From positions 23,748 to 87,747 of the forward strand of contig CACZST010000034.1 in NCBI GenBank assembly GCA_902783895.1: a DNA stretch of 64,000 nucleotides, read 5' to 3'. This DNA is from an uncultured Erysipelotrichaceae bacterium. GTDB lineage: Bacteria > Bacillota_I > Bacilli_A > RF39 > UBA660. The translations under genes were made by a program, and so were the position numbers. The notes beneath the pieces are model-generated. The model saw nothing but the letters and a program-made list of their open reading frames with translations, had not been told where the DNA came from and did no database searches. This document shows positions 1,622 to 64,000 of this stretch, one piece after another (the first letter of the stretch is position 1; every line of letters begins with the position of its first letter).

Positions 1622-3775
1622 TTATTTGTAAATTTCAAAGTATTTTTGAGAAACTCTTTGGGCTAAACGCTTATTTATTGATGATTGATGAGTTGTTTTT
1701 CCATCTTGTCTTGATACATCTGGTGAAATAATAGTAAACGCTACCTTAGGATTATCATATGGAGCATAAGCAGCAAAGGTTGTTGAAATGGTTTGCTGAT
1801 CTACTTTTCCATCTTTGTCAGTATCAATAAAACTTTGAGATGTTCCAGTTTTTCCAGCTGGTTTATAAGCCATATCAATATAACCTGCTCCTGTTCCATA
1901 TTTAAGGACAGCTTCAAATCCTTCATGAACTTTATCCATGTATTCTTGTTTAGTATTTACTTTGTTTAAAACTTTTACTTCGTTTTCATTTGTTATTTTA
2001 CCATTATCATAATATCCTTTAAATACAGATAATTGTTTTCTTTCACCATTATCAGCAATTGTATCTATATACTGCGCTAATTGAATTGGGGTATAGTTAT
2101 CATACTGACCGATTGAAAAGTCTAGTAATAATCCAGATGTTGTACTTGTTCCTTTAAGTCCTGTACTTTTTTCAGGAAGATCAATTCCTGTTTTTACTCC
2201 TAGTCCAAATTCAGCAAAGGTGTTACGGTAAGTATTAAAAGCTTCGGTATCAATTGAAAGTGGTTTATTATATTGATAATTTCCTTTACCTATTTTAATA
2301 GCTGTATAGTACTGATATGTATTTGATGAGTAAGCTAAAGCTGTTACATCATTTAATTTTCCCAGTGGTTTCCAAGAACATTTTTCAGGAGTAGCAGCAA
2401 TTTTAACACAATTATCATATCTTACCTCACCTATTTTTAAAGCTCCGGTATTGTATCCAGTTATTTGTGAGGCTCCCTTGACAACTGAACCCATAACAAC
2501 TGATGATGTTAAAGCGCCAGTTGTATAGTCGACTATTTCTTTTTTACCATTTTCGTCTTTGACTTGTTTACCAGACATAGCTAACACTTCACCGGTTTTT
2601 GGATCTGTGATGATTACAAATGAGTGGTCATAAAATTCAGTATTAGCTTCTGATTTTGTTTGCATAACTTCTTCTGATAAAATTTGCTCAATTTCTTTTT
2701 GAAGTTCAATATCAATTGAAAGGACAATATCCTGACCTCTTTTACCTTCTTTTATTAGTTTATATGTTCCATCACCTAGTACTTGATATTTATTTTTTTC
2801 TCCTCTTAGAATATCTTCGTATTGGTATTCAATGTAGCTTGTACCTACTCTATCGTCTAAACTATAACCTTTTTTTAGATAGTAATCTTTTAGTTCGGCA
2901 GGGATACCACTTTTACTACTAGAAACATTTCCTAAAATACTTCTAAATACATTACCATAAGGATAAGATCTTGCCCAATCTAATTTGGTGTTTACACCTT
3001 TTAAATTACTTATATTTTCAGAAATTAAAGCATATTCAGCGTCCGATACATCGGTGTTTTTTATTACTTTTTCATCATAAGAATAACCAGTGTTCATAAG
3101 CGTATATATATATGCAGCTTTTTTATCTTCATCATTATATGTGGATAACTCTTCTGGAGTAATTCTTTCAAGTTCTAATTTGTATATATCATCACTTGTT
3201 AATTTTCTTTCTTCAAGTTTTTTCCATTCAGCATCAGTTATTTTGGATTTTAATTTTTTAGGATTATTTTTGGCCCAAAATACTTTTAAATTATTATCAT
3301 TTAATTTTGAAAAATCAATGTCTATCATACTTGCTAATTTATAAGCTGTTTCGATTTCTTCTTTTGCAGTTATTTTATTTGGCTTTTTATAATAAATAAC
3401 TTTAATTGGAGTATTATCAACAATTAATTTACCATTTCTATCATATATACGTCCACGAGGTGCGGTTTCACCGTCAGTTGTTTTTAAAGTTAAGGTATTT
3501 AATTCTTTTGTATATTTTTCTTTACTGACTATTTGGATAAAAAATAGGCAGAATAATAAGACAAAGAGAATTAAAATAATTATAAATGTTAATATGTTAT
3601 ACCTTTTTTCGATTTCAATTTTGACGTCTTTATTATTTTTATATGAATTAAGGTTACTATAACTTGGATTTTTTTGTCTTTTTTTAATTTTTAATGAGTT
3701 TTTTCTTCTTTGATTTATCTCAGAAATTGATGGGATATTTTGAAAAAAGTTTTTTATCTTATTTATTATTCGCAA
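1622..3775 (-). CDS. class B penicillin-binding protein (peptidoglycan D,D-transpeptidase, PBP2/SpoVD-like) with roughly 60 aa basic cytoplasmic N-terminal tail
   Basis: 717 aa; TM segment; SVVK (SxxK), SSN (SxN), KTGT motifs; PBP dimerisation region. Confidence 0.85.
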   Translation of the reverse strand: MRIINKIKNFFQNIPSISEINQRRKNSLKIKKRQKNPSYSNLNSYKNNKDVKIEIEKRYNILTFIIILILFVLLFCLFFIQIVSKEKYTKELNTLTLKTTDGETAPRGRIYDRNGKLIVDNTPIKVIYYKKPNKITAKEEIETAYKLASMIDIDFSKLNDNNLKVFWAKNNPKKLKSKITDAEWKKLEERKLTSDDIYKLELERITPEELSTYNDEDKKAAYIYTLMNTGYSYDEKVIKNTDVSDAEYALISENISNLKGVNTKLDWARSYPYGNVFRSILGNVSSSKSGIPAELKDYYLKKGYSLDDRVGTSYIEYQYEDILRGEKNKYQVLGDGTYKLIKEGKRGQDIVLSIDIELQKEIEQILSEEVMQTKSEANTEFYDHSFVIITDPKTGEVLAMSGKQVKDENGKKEIVDYTTGALTSSVVMGSVVKGASQITGYNTGALKIGEVRYDNCVKIAATPEKCSWKPLGKLNDVTALAYSSNTYQYYTAIKIGKGNYQYNKPLSIDTEAFNTYRNTFAEFGLGVKTGIDLPEKSTGLKGTSTTSGLLLDFSIGQYDNYTPIQLAQYIDTIADNGERKQLSVFKGYYDNGKITNENEVKVLNKVNTKQEYMDKVHEGFEAVLKYGTGAGYIDMAYKPAGKTGTSQSFIDTDKDGKVDQQTISTTFAAYAPYDNPKVAFTIISPDVSRQDGKTTHQSSINKRLAQRVSQKYFEIYK

Positions 3776-3826: not shown

Positions 3827-4084
3827 ATGAAATATTTGATTGAAAGATATATTAGTAGTATTACTAAGAAAGATATTATTAGTTTTGCGGGAAGTAATAA
3901 TATTTATTTAGATGATTATGAAGTCACTATTTTATATGAATGTATGCATAAACATTATAACGATTTTCTAAATGGTGATGAATCTTTTTTAGAAGACATT
4001 AAAAAGAAATTTGATAAAGAAAAATTTAACAAAATTTACAATTTATATTTACTTTATAAGGAAAAATATAAAGGTTATCTATAA
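3827..4084 (+). CDS. small hypothetical protein (85 aa)
   Basis: ATG at 3827 follows GGGGG SD. The ORF-track start at 3740 overlaps the PBP gene and is unlikely. Confidence 0.4.
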   Translation: MKYLIERYISSITKKDIISFAGSNNIYLDDYEVTILYECMHKHYNDFLNGDESFLEDIKKKFDKEKFNKIYNLYLLYKEKYKGYL

Positions 4085-5016
4085 TAATTTCTAATTTCAG
4101 TTAACATGTTTTTATCAAATTTATCATTTCTAATCATTTCGATTTCAAATTTATATGGTGGATAACTACGGTCAGTACCATCTTTTTCTTTACTTACATA
4201 TGGTGTTTCTAGGATAAGAGGTAATTTTCTTACTCTAGGATTATAAGCTATTTTTTCGATGTTTTCAAAGCCTATTGTTCCAAAGCCAATATTTGCATGT
4301 CTATCTTTATGTGATCCCATTTGATTTTTATCATCATTTAAATGGATACATCCCAATTTATCAAGTCCAATTACTTCATCAAAATCATCTAAGACTGCAT
4401 CGAAATTTGAGACATCATATCCAGCATCATATATATGACATGTATCTATGCACACCATTATTCTTTTTTTATTTTTAACGTTTTTAATAATTTGGTTTAA
4501 CTGCAGAAAATCAGTTCCAACTTCTGTTCCTTTACCAGCCATTGTTTCAAGACAGATAATTGGTCCTTCTTCTTCAGTTAAAACTAAATTTAAGCCATTT
4601 GCAATGTTTTCTAAGCCTTTTTCAACACCTAATCCAACATGACTTCCTGGGTGTAGAACTATTTTATTAACACCGAATTTTTTTGCTCTTTCTACTTCTT
4701 CTTTTAGGAAGTTTACAGTAAATTTCCATTTTTCTTCATCTTTATTATTAGCTAGATTTATAATATATGGAGCATGAATAATAACATTTTTGATGTCAAT
4801 ATTGTTTTCTTTCATTAATTTTTGAGCATTTTTTACATTTTCTTCATCTATTTTACTTCTAAATGTATTTTGAGGAGCTCCTGTATAAAACATAAATGTA
4901 TTTGCATTATAGCTTAATGTTTCCTTTACAGATCCAGTTAATCCTTCATTTTTATTGTAAGAAACGTGGCTTCCTAAAATTATATTTTCCAAAGTAATCA
5001 CCTCTTTAGATATCAT
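4075..5016 (-). CDS. nfo: endonuclease IV (AP endonuclease)
   Basis: 313 aa; HAPYIINLAN...VLHPGSH...ICLETMAGKGTE...IDTCHIYDAGYD TIM-barrel metal ligands of Nfo. Confidence 0.9.
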   Translation of the reverse strand: MISKEVITLENIILGSHVSYNKNEGLTGSVKETLSYNANTFMFYTGAPQNTFRSKIDEENVKNAQKLMKENNIDIKNVIIHAPYIINLANNKDEEKWKFTVNFLKEEVERAKKFGVNKIVLHPGSHVGLGVEKGLENIANGLNLVLTEEEGPIICLETMAGKGTEVGTDFLQLNQIIKNVKNKKRIMVCIDTCHIYDAGYDVSNFDAVLDDFDEVIGLDKLGCIHLNDDKNQMGSHKDRHANIGFGTIGFENIEKIAYNPRVRKLPLILETPYVSKEKDGTDRSYPPYKFEIEMIRNDKFDKNMLTEIRNYYR

Positions 5017-18009: not shown

Positions 18010-18215
18010 TTCTAATAAATCGAAGAAAAAGACTAGTAATATAAGTTAATGTATTAAAGAGAGTTAGTGGTTGGTGTGAACTAATATACATTTTTATATG
18101 AATCTACTTTGGAGAGAAGCTAATCACTTCCGGCCTAGCCGTTATTTTAATTAAGATCTATATTAGGATGGTACCGTAATTTATTTACTCCTATATTATA
18201 GGTCTTTTTATTTTC
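18010..18215 (+). promoter_or_regulatory. T-box riboswitch leader of serS, with terminator/antiterminator
   Basis: AGAGAG stem I motif (18058-18063). UCC Ser specifier candidate in cacTTCCggc. Conserved T-box sequence attaGGATGGTACCGtaa (18163-18179). Terminator hairpin cctat-atta-tagg followed by tcttttta. Confidence 0.75.
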
Positions 18216-18244
18216 TTTTGGTTTATTTGGAAAAGAGGGATAAA

Positions 18245-19531
18245 ATGATTGATATTAAAATTATTAGGGAAAAACCTGATGTAGTTAAAGAAAACATTAG
18301 AAAAAAGTTTCAAGATGATAAATTACCTTTAGTAGATGAGATAATTAATCTCGATGAAGAAGTTAGAAAAGTTAAGGCTCGTGGTGATGAACTTAGATCT
18401 ATTCGTAATAAAACTAGTGCGTTAATTGGTCAATTAATAAGTGAAGGCAATGAAGCTGAGGCTATGAATGTTAAAAAAGAGGTTTCAAAATATGGAAAAG
18501 AAATAGATGAACTTTCTAAGAAGGAAGCTCATTTAAATGAAGAAATTAAAAAAAGAATGATGGTTATTCCAAATATTATTGATGCTTCTGTTCCTATTGG
18601 GGAAGATGACACTAAAAATGTTGAAAACGAAAAATTTGGTGAACCTATGGTTCCTGATTTTGAGGTTCCTTTCCATGCAGATATTTGTGAAAGACTTAAT
18701 GGTTTAGATAAGAAAAGTGCTGGTAGAACTAGTGGTAATGGATTTTATTATTTAATGGGTGATGTGGCAAGACTTCATTCTGCAATGCTTTCTTATGCCC
18801 GTGATTTTATGATTGATAAAGGATTTACATATGTCGTTCCTCCATTTATGATTAGAAGTGATGTTGTTAATGGCGTTATGAGCTTTTCTGAGATGGAAGA
18901 TATGATGTATAAAATTGAAGGTGAAGATTTATATTTGATTGGTACTTCTGAACATTCAATGATTGGTAAATTTAAAGATCAAATTATTAAAGAGGATGAA
19001 CTTCCTATTACATTAACTTCTTATTCTCCATGTTTTAGAAAAGAAGTTGGTGCTCATGGTATTGAGGAACGTGGTTTATATAGAGTTCATCAATTTGAAA
19101 AAGAGGAAATGATTGTTTTATGTAAGCCTGAAGATGGTATGAAATGGTATGACAAGATGTGGAAATATACTGTTGAATTTTTCAGAAGTTTAGATATTCC
19201 TGTTAGAACCTTAGAATGTTGTAGTGGTGATTTAGCTGATTTGAAAGTTAAATCTTGTGATGTTGAGGCTTGGAGTCCTAGACAAAAGAAATATTTTGAG
19301 GTTGGTTCTTGTTCTATTTTAGGTGATGCTCAGGCTAGAAGACTTGGTATTCGCATGAAGACTGATCATGGAAATGAGTATGTTACAACTTTAAATAATA
19401 CTGTTTTGGCTACTCCTCGTGGACTAATCGCTTTTCTTGAAAATAATGTTAATGAAGATGGTAGTGTTAATATTCCAGTGGCTTTAAGACCTTATATGGG
19501 TGGAATTGAAAAAATTACACCTAAAAAGTAA
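18245..19531 (+). CDS. serS: seryl-tRNA synthetase
   Basis: Start MIDIKIIREKPD after AAGAGGG SD; N-terminal coiled-coil arm; class II core. Preceded by the T-box leader. Confidence 0.9.
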   Translation: MIDIKIIREKPDVVKENIRKKFQDDKLPLVDEIINLDEEVRKVKARGDELRSIRNKTSALIGQLISEGNEAEAMNVKKEVSKYGKEIDELSKKEAHLNEEIKKRMMVIPNIIDASVPIGEDDTKNVENEKFGEPMVPDFEVPFHADICERLNGLDKKSAGRTSGNGFYYLMGDVARLHSAMLSYARDFMIDKGFTYVVPPFMIRSDVVNGVMSFSEMEDMMYKIEGEDLYLIGTSEHSMIGKFKDQIIKEDELPITLTSYSPCFRKEVGAHGIEERGLYRVHQFEKEEMIVLCKPEDGMKWYDKMWKYTVEFFRSLDIPVRTLECCSGDLADLKVKSCDVEAWSPRQKKYFEVGSCSILGDAQARRLGIRMKTDHGNEYVTTLNNTVLATPRGLIAFLENNVNEDGSVNIPVALRPYMGGIEKITPKK

Positions 19532-59981: not shown

Positions 59982-61304
59982 TTAAGCTGTTTTACGATAT
60001 TTAAATTTATATGTTACATCAAGTTTTTTATCTTCTCTGTAAGCAAAATCTGGGAGATCCATTTTAACTTTTTCTTCAAATTCATCAAGTGGTAATGGTT
60101 CTTTTAAAACTTTTAAAGATAATATTTCATATACTTCTCTATATCTTGTGACAGTTCTTGTTTCTTCACTACGATAAATTTCATTAGAACCATTTACTTT
60201 ACTCTCATCTTCCCATGATGAGAAACTACCATATGTTGCGGTATCTTCATCCTTTAAGTTTAAACCTACTGGAGCATAAGAATATAACATACTATATTTT
60301 CTTTTTTGACCATTATACCAACGCCATTGTTTATCTCTATATCTGTATAATTTGGCGGGATCTGGTTCTTGCATATTATATTTTGTTTGATCTACTTCCT
60401 CTGGATTAACATATTGACCACTTTTATAATAAACTTTTTTGCCATTTTTATCTTCATAATAATATCTATATCCATCTACTGATTGAATTTCACGGTATGA
60501 TTTAGCTTCTGGAGAATTTTGTGAATAATCTGTCCAGTCAGTGTATACAGATACTTGTTCATCTTTGTTTGCATATCCATCTGGCATTTCAGATGAATAT
60601 TCCGAATAATCGCCTTCAATATCATACCAGTTCCACATTAAATCTTGATATCTGTATTGAATTTTATCTTCAGTTTCAATATCAATTATTTTACCTTCTT
60701 TTGGAACTATTGGTAGTGTATCTTCATCTTTTGGAAGATATACTCCATATTTAGATTCTTTATCAGATATTTGGTCCTGGGTATAGTACTCTGACCATGC
60801 GGTATTATTTATTTCTTTTTCATAATAGTTATAGTAAGGAATAACATCTATTATCGCGTGACTTGATGGATATGCAGAAGTTTCATTACTCCAATCTCCA
60901 TATCTTATGTTTGTAGAACATTCTTTGCATCCTCTTACATCTAAAGTATAAAGATAAGTTTCTTTGTATTTCGTTACTTTTACAGTACCAGAGCATCTAA
61001 TATCGTTGGTTTGTGAACTTCTTAAGAATCCATCATATAATTTATCAATGTGAACTATAGTGTTTTCACCTTCTATTTCTGGTAATTCTTCTCTATCCTT
61101 TAAGTAATTTAATGCGGATTGTTCGATAGCTTTATATATTTTATCACAAGTGTTATTTTGAACCATTGTATATATGATTAATCCAATTATAATTAAGGGA
61201 ATAACTGTACCAAAAAGGAAGAAACACGCTAAAAGTGGTTTCTTATTTTCAAATGATTGATTTACGACATTTCCTGATTTATCCACATATGTAGGTCTTT
61301 TCAT
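59982..61304 (-). CDS. membrane-anchored Tyr/Trp/acid-rich hypothetical protein with internal (Y)RYxDxxWxWY repeats
   Basis: 440 aa; single N-terminal TM; repeats IQYRYQDLMWNWYDIEGDY / LYRYRDKQWRWYNGQKRKY. Confidence 0.5.
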   Translation of the reverse strand: MKRPTYVDKSGNVVNQSFENKKPLLACFFLFGTVIPLIIIGLIIYTMVQNNTCDKIYKAIEQSALNYLKDREELPEIEGENTIVHIDKLYDGFLRSSQTNDIRCSGTVKVTKYKETYLYTLDVRGCKECSTNIRYGDWSNETSAYPSSHAIIDVIPYYNYYEKEINNTAWSEYYTQDQISDKESKYGVYLPKDEDTLPIVPKEGKIIDIETEDKIQYRYQDLMWNWYDIEGDYSEYSSEMPDGYANKDEQVSVYTDWTDYSQNSPEAKSYREIQSVDGYRYYYEDKNGKKVYYKSGQYVNPEEVDQTKYNMQEPDPAKLYRYRDKQWRWYNGQKRKYSMLYSYAPVGLNLKDEDTATYGSFSSWEDESKVNGSNEIYRSEETRTVTRYREVYEILSLKVLKEPLPLDEFEEKVKMDLPDFAYREDKKLDVTYKFKYRKTA

Positions 61305-61420: not shown

Positions 61421-62548
61421 TTAAATCCTTTTATTTTTTGTCATTTTTTTCGTAATTATTACAGCTAAAGATATAAATATAATTCCAATAGATGCGATTA
61501 TTATAGACATCTGAGCGGATGTGGATGGTACTTCTACTAATTGCCTGTTATCTATATCGACTTCATTATTATTTTCTTCATCTTTTGTTTCTTCAACATA
61601 TTTTGAAACTGTATATGGATTAGTCTCTGTACCTTCTCCATTTAGTGTAGTTTCAGAGGATAGGTAGAATGCGGGACGGACATACATATTAATCCATGTG
61701 TGTTGATAACCTAAATATCCTCGACCAGTTGTAATACTTGAATTATATCTATTTGCATTCTCGGAGTAGGAAGAAATCGTCCATTCACTATTCTTAGGAT
61801 ATAAATAATTATGCGTTTCACTATTATTGTAACACGATGAATTTCCATTGGCATAGTAATAATCTTTTATACTTATGCAAGCACTATTATTAGAACCTTT
61901 AATATAATCTATAGCGCTAATCAAAGCTACTTTACCTTTCCATTTATATGCTGTTTCTTCTTTTACACTTTCTTTTAAATCTTCTTGATTATAATTTATT
62001 ACTCCTACACCCCAATATTTTTCCTTAATGTATTCTTTAATATTATCACTTAATCCGTTATAAAAATCATTATTTAAATATGTATTTAATGTTGACTCCT
62101 TTTCTGGAAGATTCTTTAAGTTCCCTCCTATCTCCCATGACATTTGGATTACTTTGTTTCCACTCTCATCTAACATAGTCTCATTACTTCCCCAGACTTT
62201 GCAGCCAAGTGAACCAGTTGAATAGCAAAAATCATCACCAGCCTTCGATGGTCTTGAATCACCCTTGTCCCAAGGCGTTTCCCCAATACTATCTTGTTTT
62301 ACTACTTTTATAGTTCCATCTTTTTCTACTGATATTATTCTGTAAAGGTCATCACCTAATTTAATATAGTTATTTGGATTCCCACCCCTATAAATATATC
62401 TTCCATCTATAGTGGAATCTACATATAAACCATCTCCTGACGTTACTACATTTTTCTTTAAGATATCTGCAGTTTTTTCCATAGCTTTTACTGGATAAAA
62501 AGATATACTTAAAAGAATTACTGAAAGTGTAAAAAATAATTTTTTCAT
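61421..62548 (-). CDS. surface-protein family paralog (intact reference copy) with VEVPSTSA + TM + basic tail
   Basis: 375 aa; signal peptide MKKLFFTLSVILLSISFYPVKA; all conserved family blocks present. Confidence 0.75.
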   Translation of the reverse strand: MKKLFFTLSVILLSISFYPVKAMEKTADILKKNVVTSGDGLYVDSTIDGRYIYRGGNPNNYIKLGDDLYRIISVEKDGTIKVVKQDSIGETPWDKGDSRPSKAGDDFCYSTGSLGCKVWGSNETMLDESGNKVIQMSWEIGGNLKNLPEKESTLNTYLNNDFYNGLSDNIKEYIKEKYWGVGVINYNQEDLKESVKEETAYKWKGKVALISAIDYIKGSNNSACISIKDYYYANGNSSCYNNSETHNYLYPKNSEWTISSYSENANRYNSSITTGRGYLGYQHTWINMYVRPAFYLSSETTLNGEGTETNPYTVSKYVEETKDEENNNEVDIDNRQLVEVPSTSAQMSIIIASIGIIFISLAVIITKKMTKNKRI

Positions 62549-62587: not shown

Positions 62588-62607
62588 AAAAAAAAAAAAA
62601 AAAAAAC
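62588..62607. repeat. A(20) on + strand, T(20) on the coding strand: a homopolymer in the promoter spacer of the surface-protein gene 61421..62548, replacing T8/T7 at the same position in the paralogous promoters
   Basis: Coding-strand context attacttg-T20-gataaaatgggtatagtaaagtaggagagg, versus attac-T8-gctaaaatgggtatagtaaaaataggaggag upstream of 49756 and T7 upstream of 17595. Confidence 0.7.
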
Positions 62608-62648
62608 AAGTAATATTTTTGATAAATAAATTTACTTGTTTATAACTA

Positions 62649-63200
62649 TTAAATATATATTTTACTATTTTTTTCTGGTCCCATTTTTGTATCTTTATCT
62701 TGCATATATTTTTCTATAACTACTGTTTTCCCTTCTTTTAGGGATTTTTGTACATCAATAACCCTTTGGTTTCTAGAACCTCGGAAATATATATTTAGAC
62801 TTCTTTCAGCTAATATGAATTTACCATCTATTAAAACATCAACGTGTTTTAATAGGTCTAACATTGGTTTTCTTTTTAGTAAGTCTTCATATGTAAATCC
62901 TGTGTAACACCAAACGGTAAGTCCAATTTCATGAGCATGTTTGGCGATTTCAGCGGATGCTTGCGGTTGGAAAAGTGGATCTCCTCCGGATAAAGTTATA
63001 CCATCTTGACCTTCTAATTTGTCAAGTTCTTTATTTACTTCATCTGTGTCGGTTAGAAATCCACCATTAAAATCCCAAGTCTCAGGGTTGTGACATCCGG
63101 GACATGCATGAGCACAGCCTTGAGTCCATATAACTGTTCTAATACCTTCACCATCAACTATACTATCAGGTTGAAGGGTACTAGCTAAACGAATTTTCAT
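62649..63200 (-). CDS. nrdG: anaerobic ribonucleoside-triphosphate reductase activating protein (radical SAM)
   Basis: 183 aa; CAHACPGC cluster motif; its ATG overlaps the TAA of the upstream glycyl-radical ORF (TAATG). Confidence 0.85.
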   Translation of the reverse strand: MKIRLASTLQPDSIVDGEGIRTVIWTQGCAHACPGCHNPETWDFNGGFLTDTDEVNKELDKLEGQDGITLSGGDPLFQPQASAEIAKHAHEIGLTVWCYTGFTYEDLLKRKPMLDLLKHVDVLIDGKFILAERSLNIYFRGSRNQRVIDVQKSLKEGKTVVIEKYMQDKDTKMGPEKNSKIYI

Positions 63201-63355
63201 TATTTTGTAATGCCAGTAGTGTCGTGTTTTACTCTATCATGTTCTTCGGCTTTTTTTCCATTATTGAATTTATCTGTAGTTCCAACTAAGTAACCTGTAA
63301 TTCTTCTTATTCTTTCAAATTTTACACCTTGTCCAACTAATTTTTCTTTTTCCAT
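63200..63355 (-). CDS. stand-alone glycyl-radical domain ORF corresponding to the NrdD C-terminus (51 aa)
   Basis: Hand-translated MEKEKLVGQGVKFERIRRITGYLVGTTDKFNNGKKAEEHDRVKHDTTGITK. RRITGYL..FNNGK..E..RVKH matches the NrdD glycyl radical region (E. coli RRVCGYLGSPDARPFNAGKQEEVKRRVKH). AGGAGGA SD sits 7 nt upstream of the ATG. It is in frame with the upstream nrdD ORF, separated from it by a TAG and 4 codons. Confidence 0.65.
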   Translation of the reverse strand: MEKEKLVGQGVKFERIRRITGYLVGTTDKFNNGKKAEEHDRVKHDTTGITK

Positions 63356-63367
63356 AATAAATTCCTC

Positions 63368-64000
63368 CTATCTTCCGCAGCAAGTTAGGTCTGCGTTTTT
63401 TACTCTTTCTATTGGTACGCCTTCACAATCTCTTCTACCACATCCTGGGCAGTAATCTCCAATTACTCCATTAAATCCACATACTGGATCACGGTCTACT
63501 GGGTGGTTGATTGCAGCGTATCCCATTTTATTATCGTGCATTAAGCGAACGATTTTTTCAAAAGCTTCGACATTTGAAGCAGTGTCACCGTCAAGTTCGA
63601 TGTAACTGATATGTCCACCATTTGTTAAGGCATGGTATGGACCTTCTATTTTTAATTTATCCGCGATTGAGATATTGTAATATACTGGAACGTGGAATGA
63701 ATTTGTATAGTAATCTCTATCAGTAACACCTTTTATTTTTCCATAAATTGCTTTATCAATATTTGTAAATCTTCCTGACAATCCTTCAGCAGGAGTTGCG
63801 ATAAGTGAGAAGTTTAAGTTATATTCTTCAGCATATTTATCAGTTTTATCTCTCATGAATTTAATAATTTTTAATCCTAATTCTTGAGCTTCTTTACTTT
63901 CACCTTGATGCTTACCAATTAGTGCTTTTAAACATTCAGCAAGTCCGATGAAACCAACTGTTAATGTTCCGTGTTTATATACTTTTCTTAATCTGTCATT
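63368..64000 (-). CDS. nrdD: anaerobic ribonucleoside-triphosphate reductase, catalytic body, partial (N-terminus beyond right window edge); ends at an in-frame TAG before the glycyl-radical region
   Basis: The frame is open to position 64000 (…RLRKVYKHGTLTVGFIGLAECLKALIGKHQGESKEAQELGLKIIKFMRDKTDKY…). C-terminal Cys-rich ribbon ...CGFNGVIGDYCPGCGRRDCEG...LTCCGR then TAG at 63368-63370. Confidence 0.8.
   Translation of the reverse strand, partial: NDRLRKVYKHGTLTVGFIGLAECLKALIGKHQGESKEAQELGLKIIKFMRDKTDKYAEEYNLNFSLIATPAEGLSGRFTNIDKAIYGKIKGVTDRDYYTNSFHVPVYYNISIADKLKIEGPYHALTNGGHISYIELDGDTASNVEAFEKIVRLMHDNKMGYAAINHPVDRDPVCGFNGVIGDYCPGCGRRDCEGVPIERVKNADLTCCGR

Follow-up and report, generated by a model that had tools for sequence, protein, structure and literature searches.

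The literature presents class III (anaerobic) ribonucleotide reductase (RNR) as a homodimer with the radical in its C-terminal domain. In the NrdD enzymes described so far, this glycyl-radical domain, which comprises a Zn site, a glycine loop and a tail, forms the C-terminus of the same chain that carries the active site. In Prevotella copri NrdD, it spans residues 676–739: a structural Zn site is followed by a buried Gly711-Tyr712 loop and a short helix, and the tail runs over the barrel top and makes contact with the substrate flap. How the buried domain exits the barrel to meet its activase, and how the ATP-cone exerts control, are active questions. Separate glycyl-radical proteins are familiar from pyruvate formate-lyase (PFL), for which replacement of the radical piece by GrcA/YfiD after O2 cleavage has been demonstrated; according to a 2026 review, small glycyl-radical proteins are known only for formate lyases. 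In this study, we analyzed a 64,000-nucleotide stretch of DNA (hereafter, the window; contig CACZST010000034.1, positions 23,748 to 87,747, assembly GCA_902783895.1) from an uncultured Erysipelotrichaceae bacterium, in which the nrdD reading frame is cut between the predicted Zn site and the glycine loop, and the loop is encoded by an open reading frame (ORF) of 51 codons placed between the nrdD body and nrdG. Judged from its sequence, the locus very probably encodes a naturally split, obligate two-polypeptide class III RNR whose radical subunit acts in trans.

The locus resembles the single-chain NrdD and NrdG systems of Escherichia coli, phage T4 and P. copri (PDB entries 8P23 and 1H7A) in nearly every respect: an ATP-cone, a barrel, a putative Zn ribbon, a formate-type finger loop with Met two residues before Cys, an RxxGY motif with its conserved Tyr, an adjacent nrdG and the gene order nrdD-nrdG. 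The position of the cut sets it apart. GrcA/YfiD, like T4 Y06I, is also a small stand-alone radical-loop protein, presumably activated by the activase of its partner, that docks into a barrel without a working loop. However, GrcA rescues a complete PFL cleaved by O2 and is facultative, whereas the adjacent body is Gly-less in 66 species here, which would make the small protein an obligate subunit. GrcA also belongs to the PFL-type Gly_radical family (PF01228, IPR011140) and has 127 aa, while the 51-aa protein is NrdD-derived. The analogy to GrcA/YfiD drawn in a preliminary description of this DNA, made from the sequence alone, therefore holds for the appearance of the small protein but not for its role, since the body has no radical glycine of its own, and no match of the small ORF to PF01228 was found at E-values up to 0.01.

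Other multipart enzymes are more distant. The class II RNRs NrdJa/NrdJb of Pseudomonas aeruginosa and Thermus phage phiYS40 are likewise encoded by two consecutive ORFs a few nucleotides apart, with a C-terminal module on the second chain. Unlike the system described here, they belong to the B12-dependent class, and their second chain is a large folded domain with a Zn finger and a redox Cys pair rather than a radical site. Phage nrdD genes (T4 and Aeromonas phage phiAS4) are annotated in more than one coding piece, but these breaks are sporadic, lie at other positions and are mostly due to spliced-out group I introns or homing endonuclease genes, the phiAS4 break being unexplained. The present split has no intervening element, a fixed position and separate translation signals for each piece. 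Benzylsuccinate synthase (alpha-beta-gamma) and 4-hydroxyphenylacetate decarboxylase are glycyl radical enzymes with extra small subunits. In both, the radical glycine belongs to the large catalytic subunit; the small ones have Fe-S clusters or structural roles. We found no description of such a split NrdD in the full-text literature; subscription-only journals lay mostly outside this search, and a prior mention is possible.

The elements of the locus all lie on the minus strand and are listed below in the order of transcription.

63371–64000, minus strand: 3′ part of the nrdD body gene (ORF and translation), encoding the catalytic subunit and open at the window edge, 64000.
63437–63505, minus strand: predicted Zn-ribbon segment of the body, NHPVDRDPVCGFNGVIGDYCPGCG (translation), located on the body and not on the radical piece.
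63371–63436, minus strand: C-terminal tail of the body, 22 aa, RRDCEGVPIERVKNADLTCCGR, an apparently decayed copy of the start of the radical module, without the radical glycine and with a Cys pair at its end.
63368–63370, minus strand: TAG stop codon of the nrdD body (sequence).
63363–63369, minus strand: Shine-Dalgarno (SD) sequence AGGAGGA of the small ORF, overlapping the TAG of the body, 7 nt upstream of the ATG.
63200–63355 including the stop, minus strand: gene of the predicted 51-aa glycyl-radical subunit, MEKEKLVGQGVKFERIRRITGYLVGTTDKFNNGKKAEEHDRVKHDTTGITK, equivalent to the part of the NrdD glycyl-radical domain from the buried Gly loop through the short helix to the tail.
63293–63295, minus strand: GGT codon of Gly21, the predicted radical-bearing glycine in RIRRITG21YLVG (sequence and homology).
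62649–63200, minus strand: nrdG, encoding the radical S-adenosylmethionine (SAM) activase of 183 aa (domain scans), whose ATG overlaps the TAA of the small ORF.
62588–62641, minus strand: terminator-like A/U-rich hairpin with a run of approximately 19 T, directly after nrdG.

The body reading frame in the window covers the C-terminal 209 residues of the anaerobic RNR and ends in DPVCGFNGVIGDYCPGCGRRDCEGVPIERVKNADLTCCGR. Its last residues, NADLTCCGR, are followed by the TAG at 63370–63368, and a 7-nt spacer, ATTTATT, separates AGGAGGA from the ATG of the small ORF at 63355–63353. The body stop and this ATG are 12 nt apart, so that the two nrdD pieces are in frame with TAG and four sense codons between them. 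At the other end of the small ORF, its TAA at 63202–63200 shares the final A with the nrdG start codon at 63200–63198 (TAATG). The preliminary description had reported the end of the nrdD frame, the overlap of the SD sequence with the TAG, the start 7 nt further on and the overlap with nrdG, and each of these was found at the same positions on the minus strand. The hairpin downstream of nrdG is likely the end of an operon of the nrdD body, the small ORF and nrdG. Its folding energy of −8.3 kcal/mol is no better than that of shuffled sequences (z −0.76) and is weak evidence for a terminator; a consensus terminator scan left it unflagged because it contains too few G-C pairs.

Domain scans place the two ORFs on consecutive parts of one enzyme. 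The Pfam model NRDD (PF13597) matches the body fragment of the window at profile positions 346–535 of 562 (E-value 2.2e-71) and the small ORF at positions 532–562 (1.7e-08). The full body of 765 aa, taken from the identical loci L001–L003, comprises an ATP-cone and the NRDD barrel; it scores 1016 bits against NF005497 (cut-off 764; model positions 3–715 of 746) and 588 bits against TIGR02487. The small ORF takes up where this match ends, aligning to positions 710–744, within the last 35 of the same model, and it is matched by NrdD models only among those of NCBIfam. Together with the presence of RIRRITG21YLVG, the match to the C-terminus of NRDD bears out its earlier assignment to the glycyl-radical motif region of NrdD. 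The downstream gene is nrdG, with 154 bits against TIGR02491 (cut-off 126.1) and with the Pfam domains Fer4_12 and Radical_SAM.

The catalytic motifs are divided accordingly between the two products. The finger loop EVGYMGCRTRV and the first-strand segment TTTCCQINL are both found in the body (full sequence from L001), and their cysteines were assigned by motif position and homology to Cys416 and Cys171 of P. copri NrdD. The MGCR of the loop conforms to the Met-x-Cys type seen in formate-using enzymes, P. copri NrdD among them. The body then ends in CPGCGRRDCEGVPIERVKNADLTCCGR without an RxxGY motif, and RIRRITGYLVG is found on the separate 51-aa ORF, in which G21 and Y22 align with Gly711-Tyr712 of P. 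copri NrdD and are invariant in 22 small proteins. The putative Zn-site segment, PVCG-x10-CPGCG, has three invariant Cys and an invariant upstream His (H165, C173, C183 and C186), all four invariant across 105 homologous fragments; in this subfamily, the ribbon has only three Cys and the His. By every feature tested, the system is a class III RNR, as far as sequence can tell, except that the radical motif lies off the catalytic chain.

The closest solved structure, P. copri NrdD (8P23), locates the cut. Body residues 12–747 align to residues 8–707 of the 8P23 chain (600 bits), and residues 13–44 of the small ORF align to residues 707–738, which hold the radical Gly-Tyr. Given the layout of the P. 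copri domain, these alignments place the cut inside the glycyl-radical domain, between the Zn site and the Gly loop: the predicted Zn site remains on the body, and the predicted loop with Gly21-Tyr22 is the small protein. AlphaFold2 gave no confident fold for the small protein alone (predicted local distance difference test (pLDDT) score 52.6), as expected if the piece folds on a partner. In the model of the 209-aa body fragment, the tail forms a short helix at IERVKN, and the last five residues, a floppy end with the Cys pair, have pLDDT values below 50. A short-fragment search of the PDB with the last 57 aa of the body was uninformative.

The arrangement is widely conserved. In a collection with one genome per species, the conserved peptide of the small protein occurs at no fewer than 594 places, and the best 80 loci were analyzed. 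At 66 of them, a Gly-less nrdD body of 700–830 codons is followed by an ORF of 48–75 aa with the radical motif, and the conserved FERIRRITGYLVGT...AEE.DRVKH is invariant in these small ORFs. Five loci have a small ORF without a nearby body, and another five have an ordinary fused NrdD. Junctions were compared over 67 loci, a set that includes L078, a locus with a complete nrdD and an extra small ORF that was classed as split by the script. The stop of the body is TAA in 48, TAG in 16 and TGA in 3 of them, and the spacer from body to small ORF ranges from −1 to 262 nt. The frame offset of the small ORF relative to the body is 0, 1 or 2 in 18, 24 and 25 loci, respectively. This even spread makes the in-frame relation in the window a coincidence; the relation emphasized in the preliminary description does exist here, but it is not a feature of the arrangement. 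Every small ORF starts with ATG and has an SD-like site (at least four of six matches to AGGAGG, and five or six in 60 of the 67). Of the 56 loci where nrdG was located, 38 have its start between −11 and +3 nt relative to the last base of the small ORF.

The labels of these records include Bacilli, Oscillospiraceae, Lachnospiraceae, Butyricicoccus, Desulfovibrio, Mailhella and Treponemataceae, although labels of metagenome bins may be unreliable; isolates among them include Allofournierella massiliensis DSM 100451, Scatolibacter rhodanostii and Holdemanella biformis. Purifying selection on the small ORF is strong: over a 38-codon core in 66 species, the mean proportion of synonymous differences (pS) is 0.84, near saturation, and that of nonsynonymous differences (pN) is 0.14, giving a pN/pS of 0.17. 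The corresponding value of 0.88 for the body tail is unusable, as it comes from an ungapped comparison of tails that differ by one-residue insertions and deletions. Searches with the small protein alone also returned stand-alone proteins. The 51-aa sequence matched 6974 clusters at 90% identity, the best 120 of which were all 49–68 aa long, one of them present on 744 contigs. A profile of 22 small proteins gave 2569 matches among 1.84 billion representatives at 50% identity, the best 150 of which were all 51–124 aa long, and the longer ones inspected were gene-calling extensions. Stand-alone proteins of 49–70 aa form hundreds of sequence clusters.

Because these loci were found through the small protein, a search with a body fragment served as a less biased check, and it returned C-terminal fragments from contig ends only. 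Among the 102 closest fragments with the Zn motif (65–83% identical to the window), a Gly-less tail of 18–31 aa forms the end of 80, and 22 continue into FERIRRITGYLVG. On all three body-seeded contigs examined, an ORF of 53–72 aa with an NRDD match directly follows the body and is itself followed by nrdG. A phage collection contained only fused nrdD, in Clostridioides difficile phages, and unannotated fragments. At L011, L043 and L082, the nrdD body ORF itself is broken, with 488, 148 and 125 codons before the tail, respectively; two of these are metagenome-assembled genome (MAG) records of complete chromosomes (CP091726.1 and CP091739.1). A genuine two-piece anaerobic RNR was one of the options raised in the preliminary description, and it is strongly supported by the conservation across species, the separate start of each small ORF and the purifying selection.

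The tail of the body points to the origin of the split. Fused relatives read CPxCGRxExDGVxFERIRRITGY across this region, split bodies read CPxCGRxEGEGVxxE[RK][IV]..., and small proteins read ...VGEGVxFERIRRITGY. The motif GEGVxxE[RK][IV] in both the body tail and the start of the small ORF means that the strand before the loop is present twice, and both align to the same positions of the family (NF005497 positions 710–715; 8P23 residue 707). In one group of relatives with tails of approximately 44 aa, the similarity extends to the entire small protein (40 aligned columns; hhalign P 4.2e-5, probability 70%), and the radical Gly is replaced: eGEGVplekLrkLg.Y...EE.Dr against vGeGVkFERIRRITGYLVGT.DRFNngKkAEEhDRV. 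In shorter tails, including that of the window, the similarity is limited to the first 10–13 residues. A hidden Markov model of the small protein scores body tails weakly (median 1.2 bits versus −1.5 for shuffled tails, with 30% above the 99th percentile of the shuffles), and the alignments share one register over GEGVxFERI (GEGVxxERI in the tails). Profile-profile comparison was unconvincing for the 29-aa Clostridial tails.

The split most likely goes back to a tandem duplication at the 3′ end of nrdD, after which the upstream copy would have lost its Gly and decayed while the downstream copy became a gene of its own. Compared with the fused forms, the junction contains a body tail of approximately 20 aa and a small-protein leader of approximately 12 aa and is not a point change. 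Fused forms are interleaved with split ones, with at least seven state changes on a rough neighbor-joining tree of 102 sequences, suggesting that the two forms were interconverted several times; a deletion between the two GEGV repeats would restore a fused gene. Such interconversion argues that both architectures are functionally equivalent.

Most body tails (TCCGR at 63371–63385 in the window, and those of L004–L083) end in a Cys pair, in the forms CCGR, CGCGR, CNC, CDC, CGC, CCK and CCE, and a terminal CxC or CC is also found in many small proteins and some fused NrdDs (e.g., GICSCCK and SECNCD). A role of this pair as a C-terminal dithiol like that of class I and II enzymes was considered and set aside, as the Met-x-Cys finger loop is of the formate type, as in P. 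copri.

A Bacillota MAG (JAEWRE010000033.1; L078:1485-4663) encodes a complete fused NrdD of 779 aa that covers NRDD positions 1–562 of 562 and has its own FERIRRITGYLVG. It is followed after 29 nt by an extra ORF of 94 aa, composed of an N-terminal domain of approximately 55 aa and a second glycyl-radical module, and then by nrdG. This has the appearance of a genuine spare-part system for class III RNR, and it resembles the duplicated state from which, as proposed above, the split arose.

A second family of stand-alone NrdD-type glycyl-radical proteins, 87–88 aa long, has the consensus MKVNVIGE..SQ.EIDAY...DG.FVD..Y.FE.VPFDRIRRITGYLVGT... and comprises at least 120 clusters, mostly from Ruminococcus, one of which is indexed in 2071 blocks of the collection; most members are annotated as hypothetical. 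The loci inspected are L064:~2600-3490 from Ruminococcus flavefaciens FD-1 and L084-L087:5186-6867, in which the gene is not beside nrdD. It lies directly upstream of a rubrerythrin gene in L064 and in three of the four loci L084–L087 (the neighbor in L085 has no Pfam match), and in L084–L087 it is divergent from the gene of a cyclic nucleotide-binding (Crp/Fnr-like) regulator. The rubrerythrin and Crp/Fnr-like context suggests a role in oxygen stress.

Several explanations would deny the stop codon in the window its face value. A false stop from sequencing or assembly error could be argued from the general error rate of metagenome assemblies and from the few relatives with broken body ORFs (L011, L043 and L082), yet the exact 51-aa protein occurs in 101 indexed blocks of the assembly collection; the 49 contigs that carry it come from NCBI MAGs, ENA and Logan and represent independent samples and pipelines, and L001–L003, fetched from different samples, share an identical TAG junction and an identical SD. 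We give this explanation practically no weight. A recent nonsense mutation in a continuous nrdD, rescued by reinitiation or on the way to a pseudogene, gains some color from fused relatives at 66–78% identity, which show that the fused state is evolutionarily close. It is nevertheless highly improbable: at least 66 other species share the split with diverse stops, frames and spacers, their junctions have diverged, the junction holds the tail and leader described above, and the small ORF is under purifying selection. Production of a single chain by UAG read-through, by decoding as pyrrolysine or by a suppressor, or by frameshifting would suit the window, where only TAG and four sense codons separate two in-frame ORFs. 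In this DNA, which has a G+C content of 27%, 32 of the 45 long ORFs end with TAA, 8 with TAG and 5 with TGA; since TAG closes seven long ORFs besides the nrdD body, it is an ordinary stop in the source organism, and no tRNA gene was found in the 64 kb. In relatives, the stop is mostly TAA (48 of 67), the offsets are evenly distributed over the three frames so that the ORFs are usually out of frame, the spacers reach 262 nt, and each small ORF has its own ATG and SD-like site. These stops, offsets and spacers rule out read-through, pyrrolysine and frameshifting as the way of making the protein, and there is very little chance that recoding explains the locus. An intervening mobile element is absent as well, given the spacers of 12 nt here and −1 to 262 nt in relatives, and no Rfam intron was found in the window. 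The preliminary description had left nonsense mutation, sequencing error and UAG recoding open while doubting a purely accidental stop; the three options fall with these data, and the doubt was justified, as the arrangement recurs in at least 66 other species and in independent assemblies.

A different reading accepts the split and makes the small protein a facultative repair piece, like GrcA/YfiD, for a complete NrdD encoded elsewhere, the Gly-less body then being a regulatory or decaying paralogue. In favor of this reading, an NrdD-type radical protein stands alone next to a complete NrdD in L078, and others are encoded apart from any nrdD (L064, L084–L087 and Desulfovibrio loci). On the other hand, 66 species place the small ORF between a Gly-less body and nrdG, often with translational coupling, and the bodies are well conserved and keep the full catalytic apparatus, scoring above the equivalog cut-off (1016 versus 764 bits). 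Fused enzymes 66–78% identical in the same sequence neighborhood further indicate that the split pair corresponds to one functional NrdD, and we consider the facultative role unlikely. Some points do weigh against the obligate pair or its proposed origin. The linkage is not universal: in L025, L029, L055 and L069, from Desulfovibrio and Mailhella MAGs, a small ORF of the ordinary type has no nrdD body within 450 nt upstream. A second, complete NrdD or another RNR class elsewhere in the genomes with the split is conceivable, and the small protein may then serve another partner. The evidence for duplication is moderate, with the hhalign probability of 70% for the long tails and alignments over only 10–13 residues for the short ones, and the trees are crude neighbor-joining trees. 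Radical generation in E. coli requires the Zn-ribbon cysteines; with the Zn ribbon on the other polypeptide here, it may be the assembled complex, and not the free peptide, that is activated. The Desulfovibrio and Mailhella loci also imply that the small subunit can be encoded apart from the body; in L025 (~3950-4120), the gene upstream of the small ORF encodes a FIST-GGDEF-HD signaling protein.

We propose the following mechanism for the obligate two-polypeptide enzyme. The three genes would be transcribed as one mRNA, and the position of the SD of the small ORF in the body stop and the one-base overlap with nrdG would couple their translation. The 765-aa body would provide the ATP-cone, the 10-stranded barrel with the Cys finger loop, the Zn ribbon and the vestigial tail, but no radical glycine; the 51-aa protein would supply the Gly21-Tyr22 loop together with the helix and the tail that lie over the barrel. 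NrdG, whose action on the small protein we infer from the adjacency of the genes, would use SAM and a reduced 4Fe-4S cluster to abstract a hydrogen from Gly21. The loop of the small protein would then enter the barrel of the body opposite the finger-loop cysteine, and assembly of the two pieces would give the active enzyme. By analogy to GrcA, the split may be beneficial because, after O2 cleavage at the radical Gly, the 6-kDa piece alone could be replaced. A neutral origin by duplication and degeneration fits the data equally well as this idea of cheap replacement.

A bolder version of the split enzyme, which we offer only tentatively and regard as doubtful, is that the radical Gly of class III RNR is carried by an inexpensive 6-kDa cartridge that can be exchanged. 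The peptide would be charged by NrdG while free or loosely bound, and after O2 cleavage only the cartridge would be discarded and replaced, amounting to a constitutive version of the repair principle of GrcA. dATP is known to make the glycyl-radical domain of P. copri NrdD dynamic; inhibition by dATP through the ATP-cone of the body could likewise release the cartridge, and the vestigial tail of the body could hold its place in the barrel when no cartridge is bound. If this were true, then, together with the separate 87–94-aa proteins of the Ruminococcus type, whose genes neighbor rubrerythrin, trans-acting glycyl-radical proteins would be a general RNR strategy of gut anaerobes and not a peculiarity of PFL.

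Other features of the window and its relatives are as follows. Upstream of nrdD in L001, a search with an NrdR-box consensus gave no matches near the gene. Downstream of the nrd operon, the product of a gene at 61421–62548 (minus strand) has 375 aa, carries a signal-like segment at its N-terminus and a hydrophobic anchor at its C-terminus, and matches DUF6273 weakly. The next gene, at 59982–61304, encodes a Tyr/Trp-rich protein of 440 aa, and the matching gene of L001 has no Pfam match on record. Both genes are conserved in L001 and L002. The sole Rfam family detected in the window is a T-box leader (RF00230, 96.3 bits, gathering threshold 93) at 18014–18195 (plus strand), at the start of a 455-aa ORF at 18167–19531.

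The split has consequences for genome annotation. Hundreds of clusters of the small protein are unnamed, labeled hypothetical or given the name of the full-length enzyme, and neither Pfam nor NCBIfam has a model dedicated to the small proteins. Surveys that demand a C-terminal Gly would discard the bodies as truncated. A natural, separate radical loop of approximately 50 aa is also an experimental handle that is independent of the 88-kDa body and open to labeling, titration, pre-activation, damage and replacement. It offers a test of whether the spare-part principle, validated so far only for pyruvate formate-lyase, reaches the enzyme that supplies DNA precursors in anaerobes. The host organisms are common gut Bacillota, and the arrangement may bear on the survival of strict anaerobes in the presence of O2.

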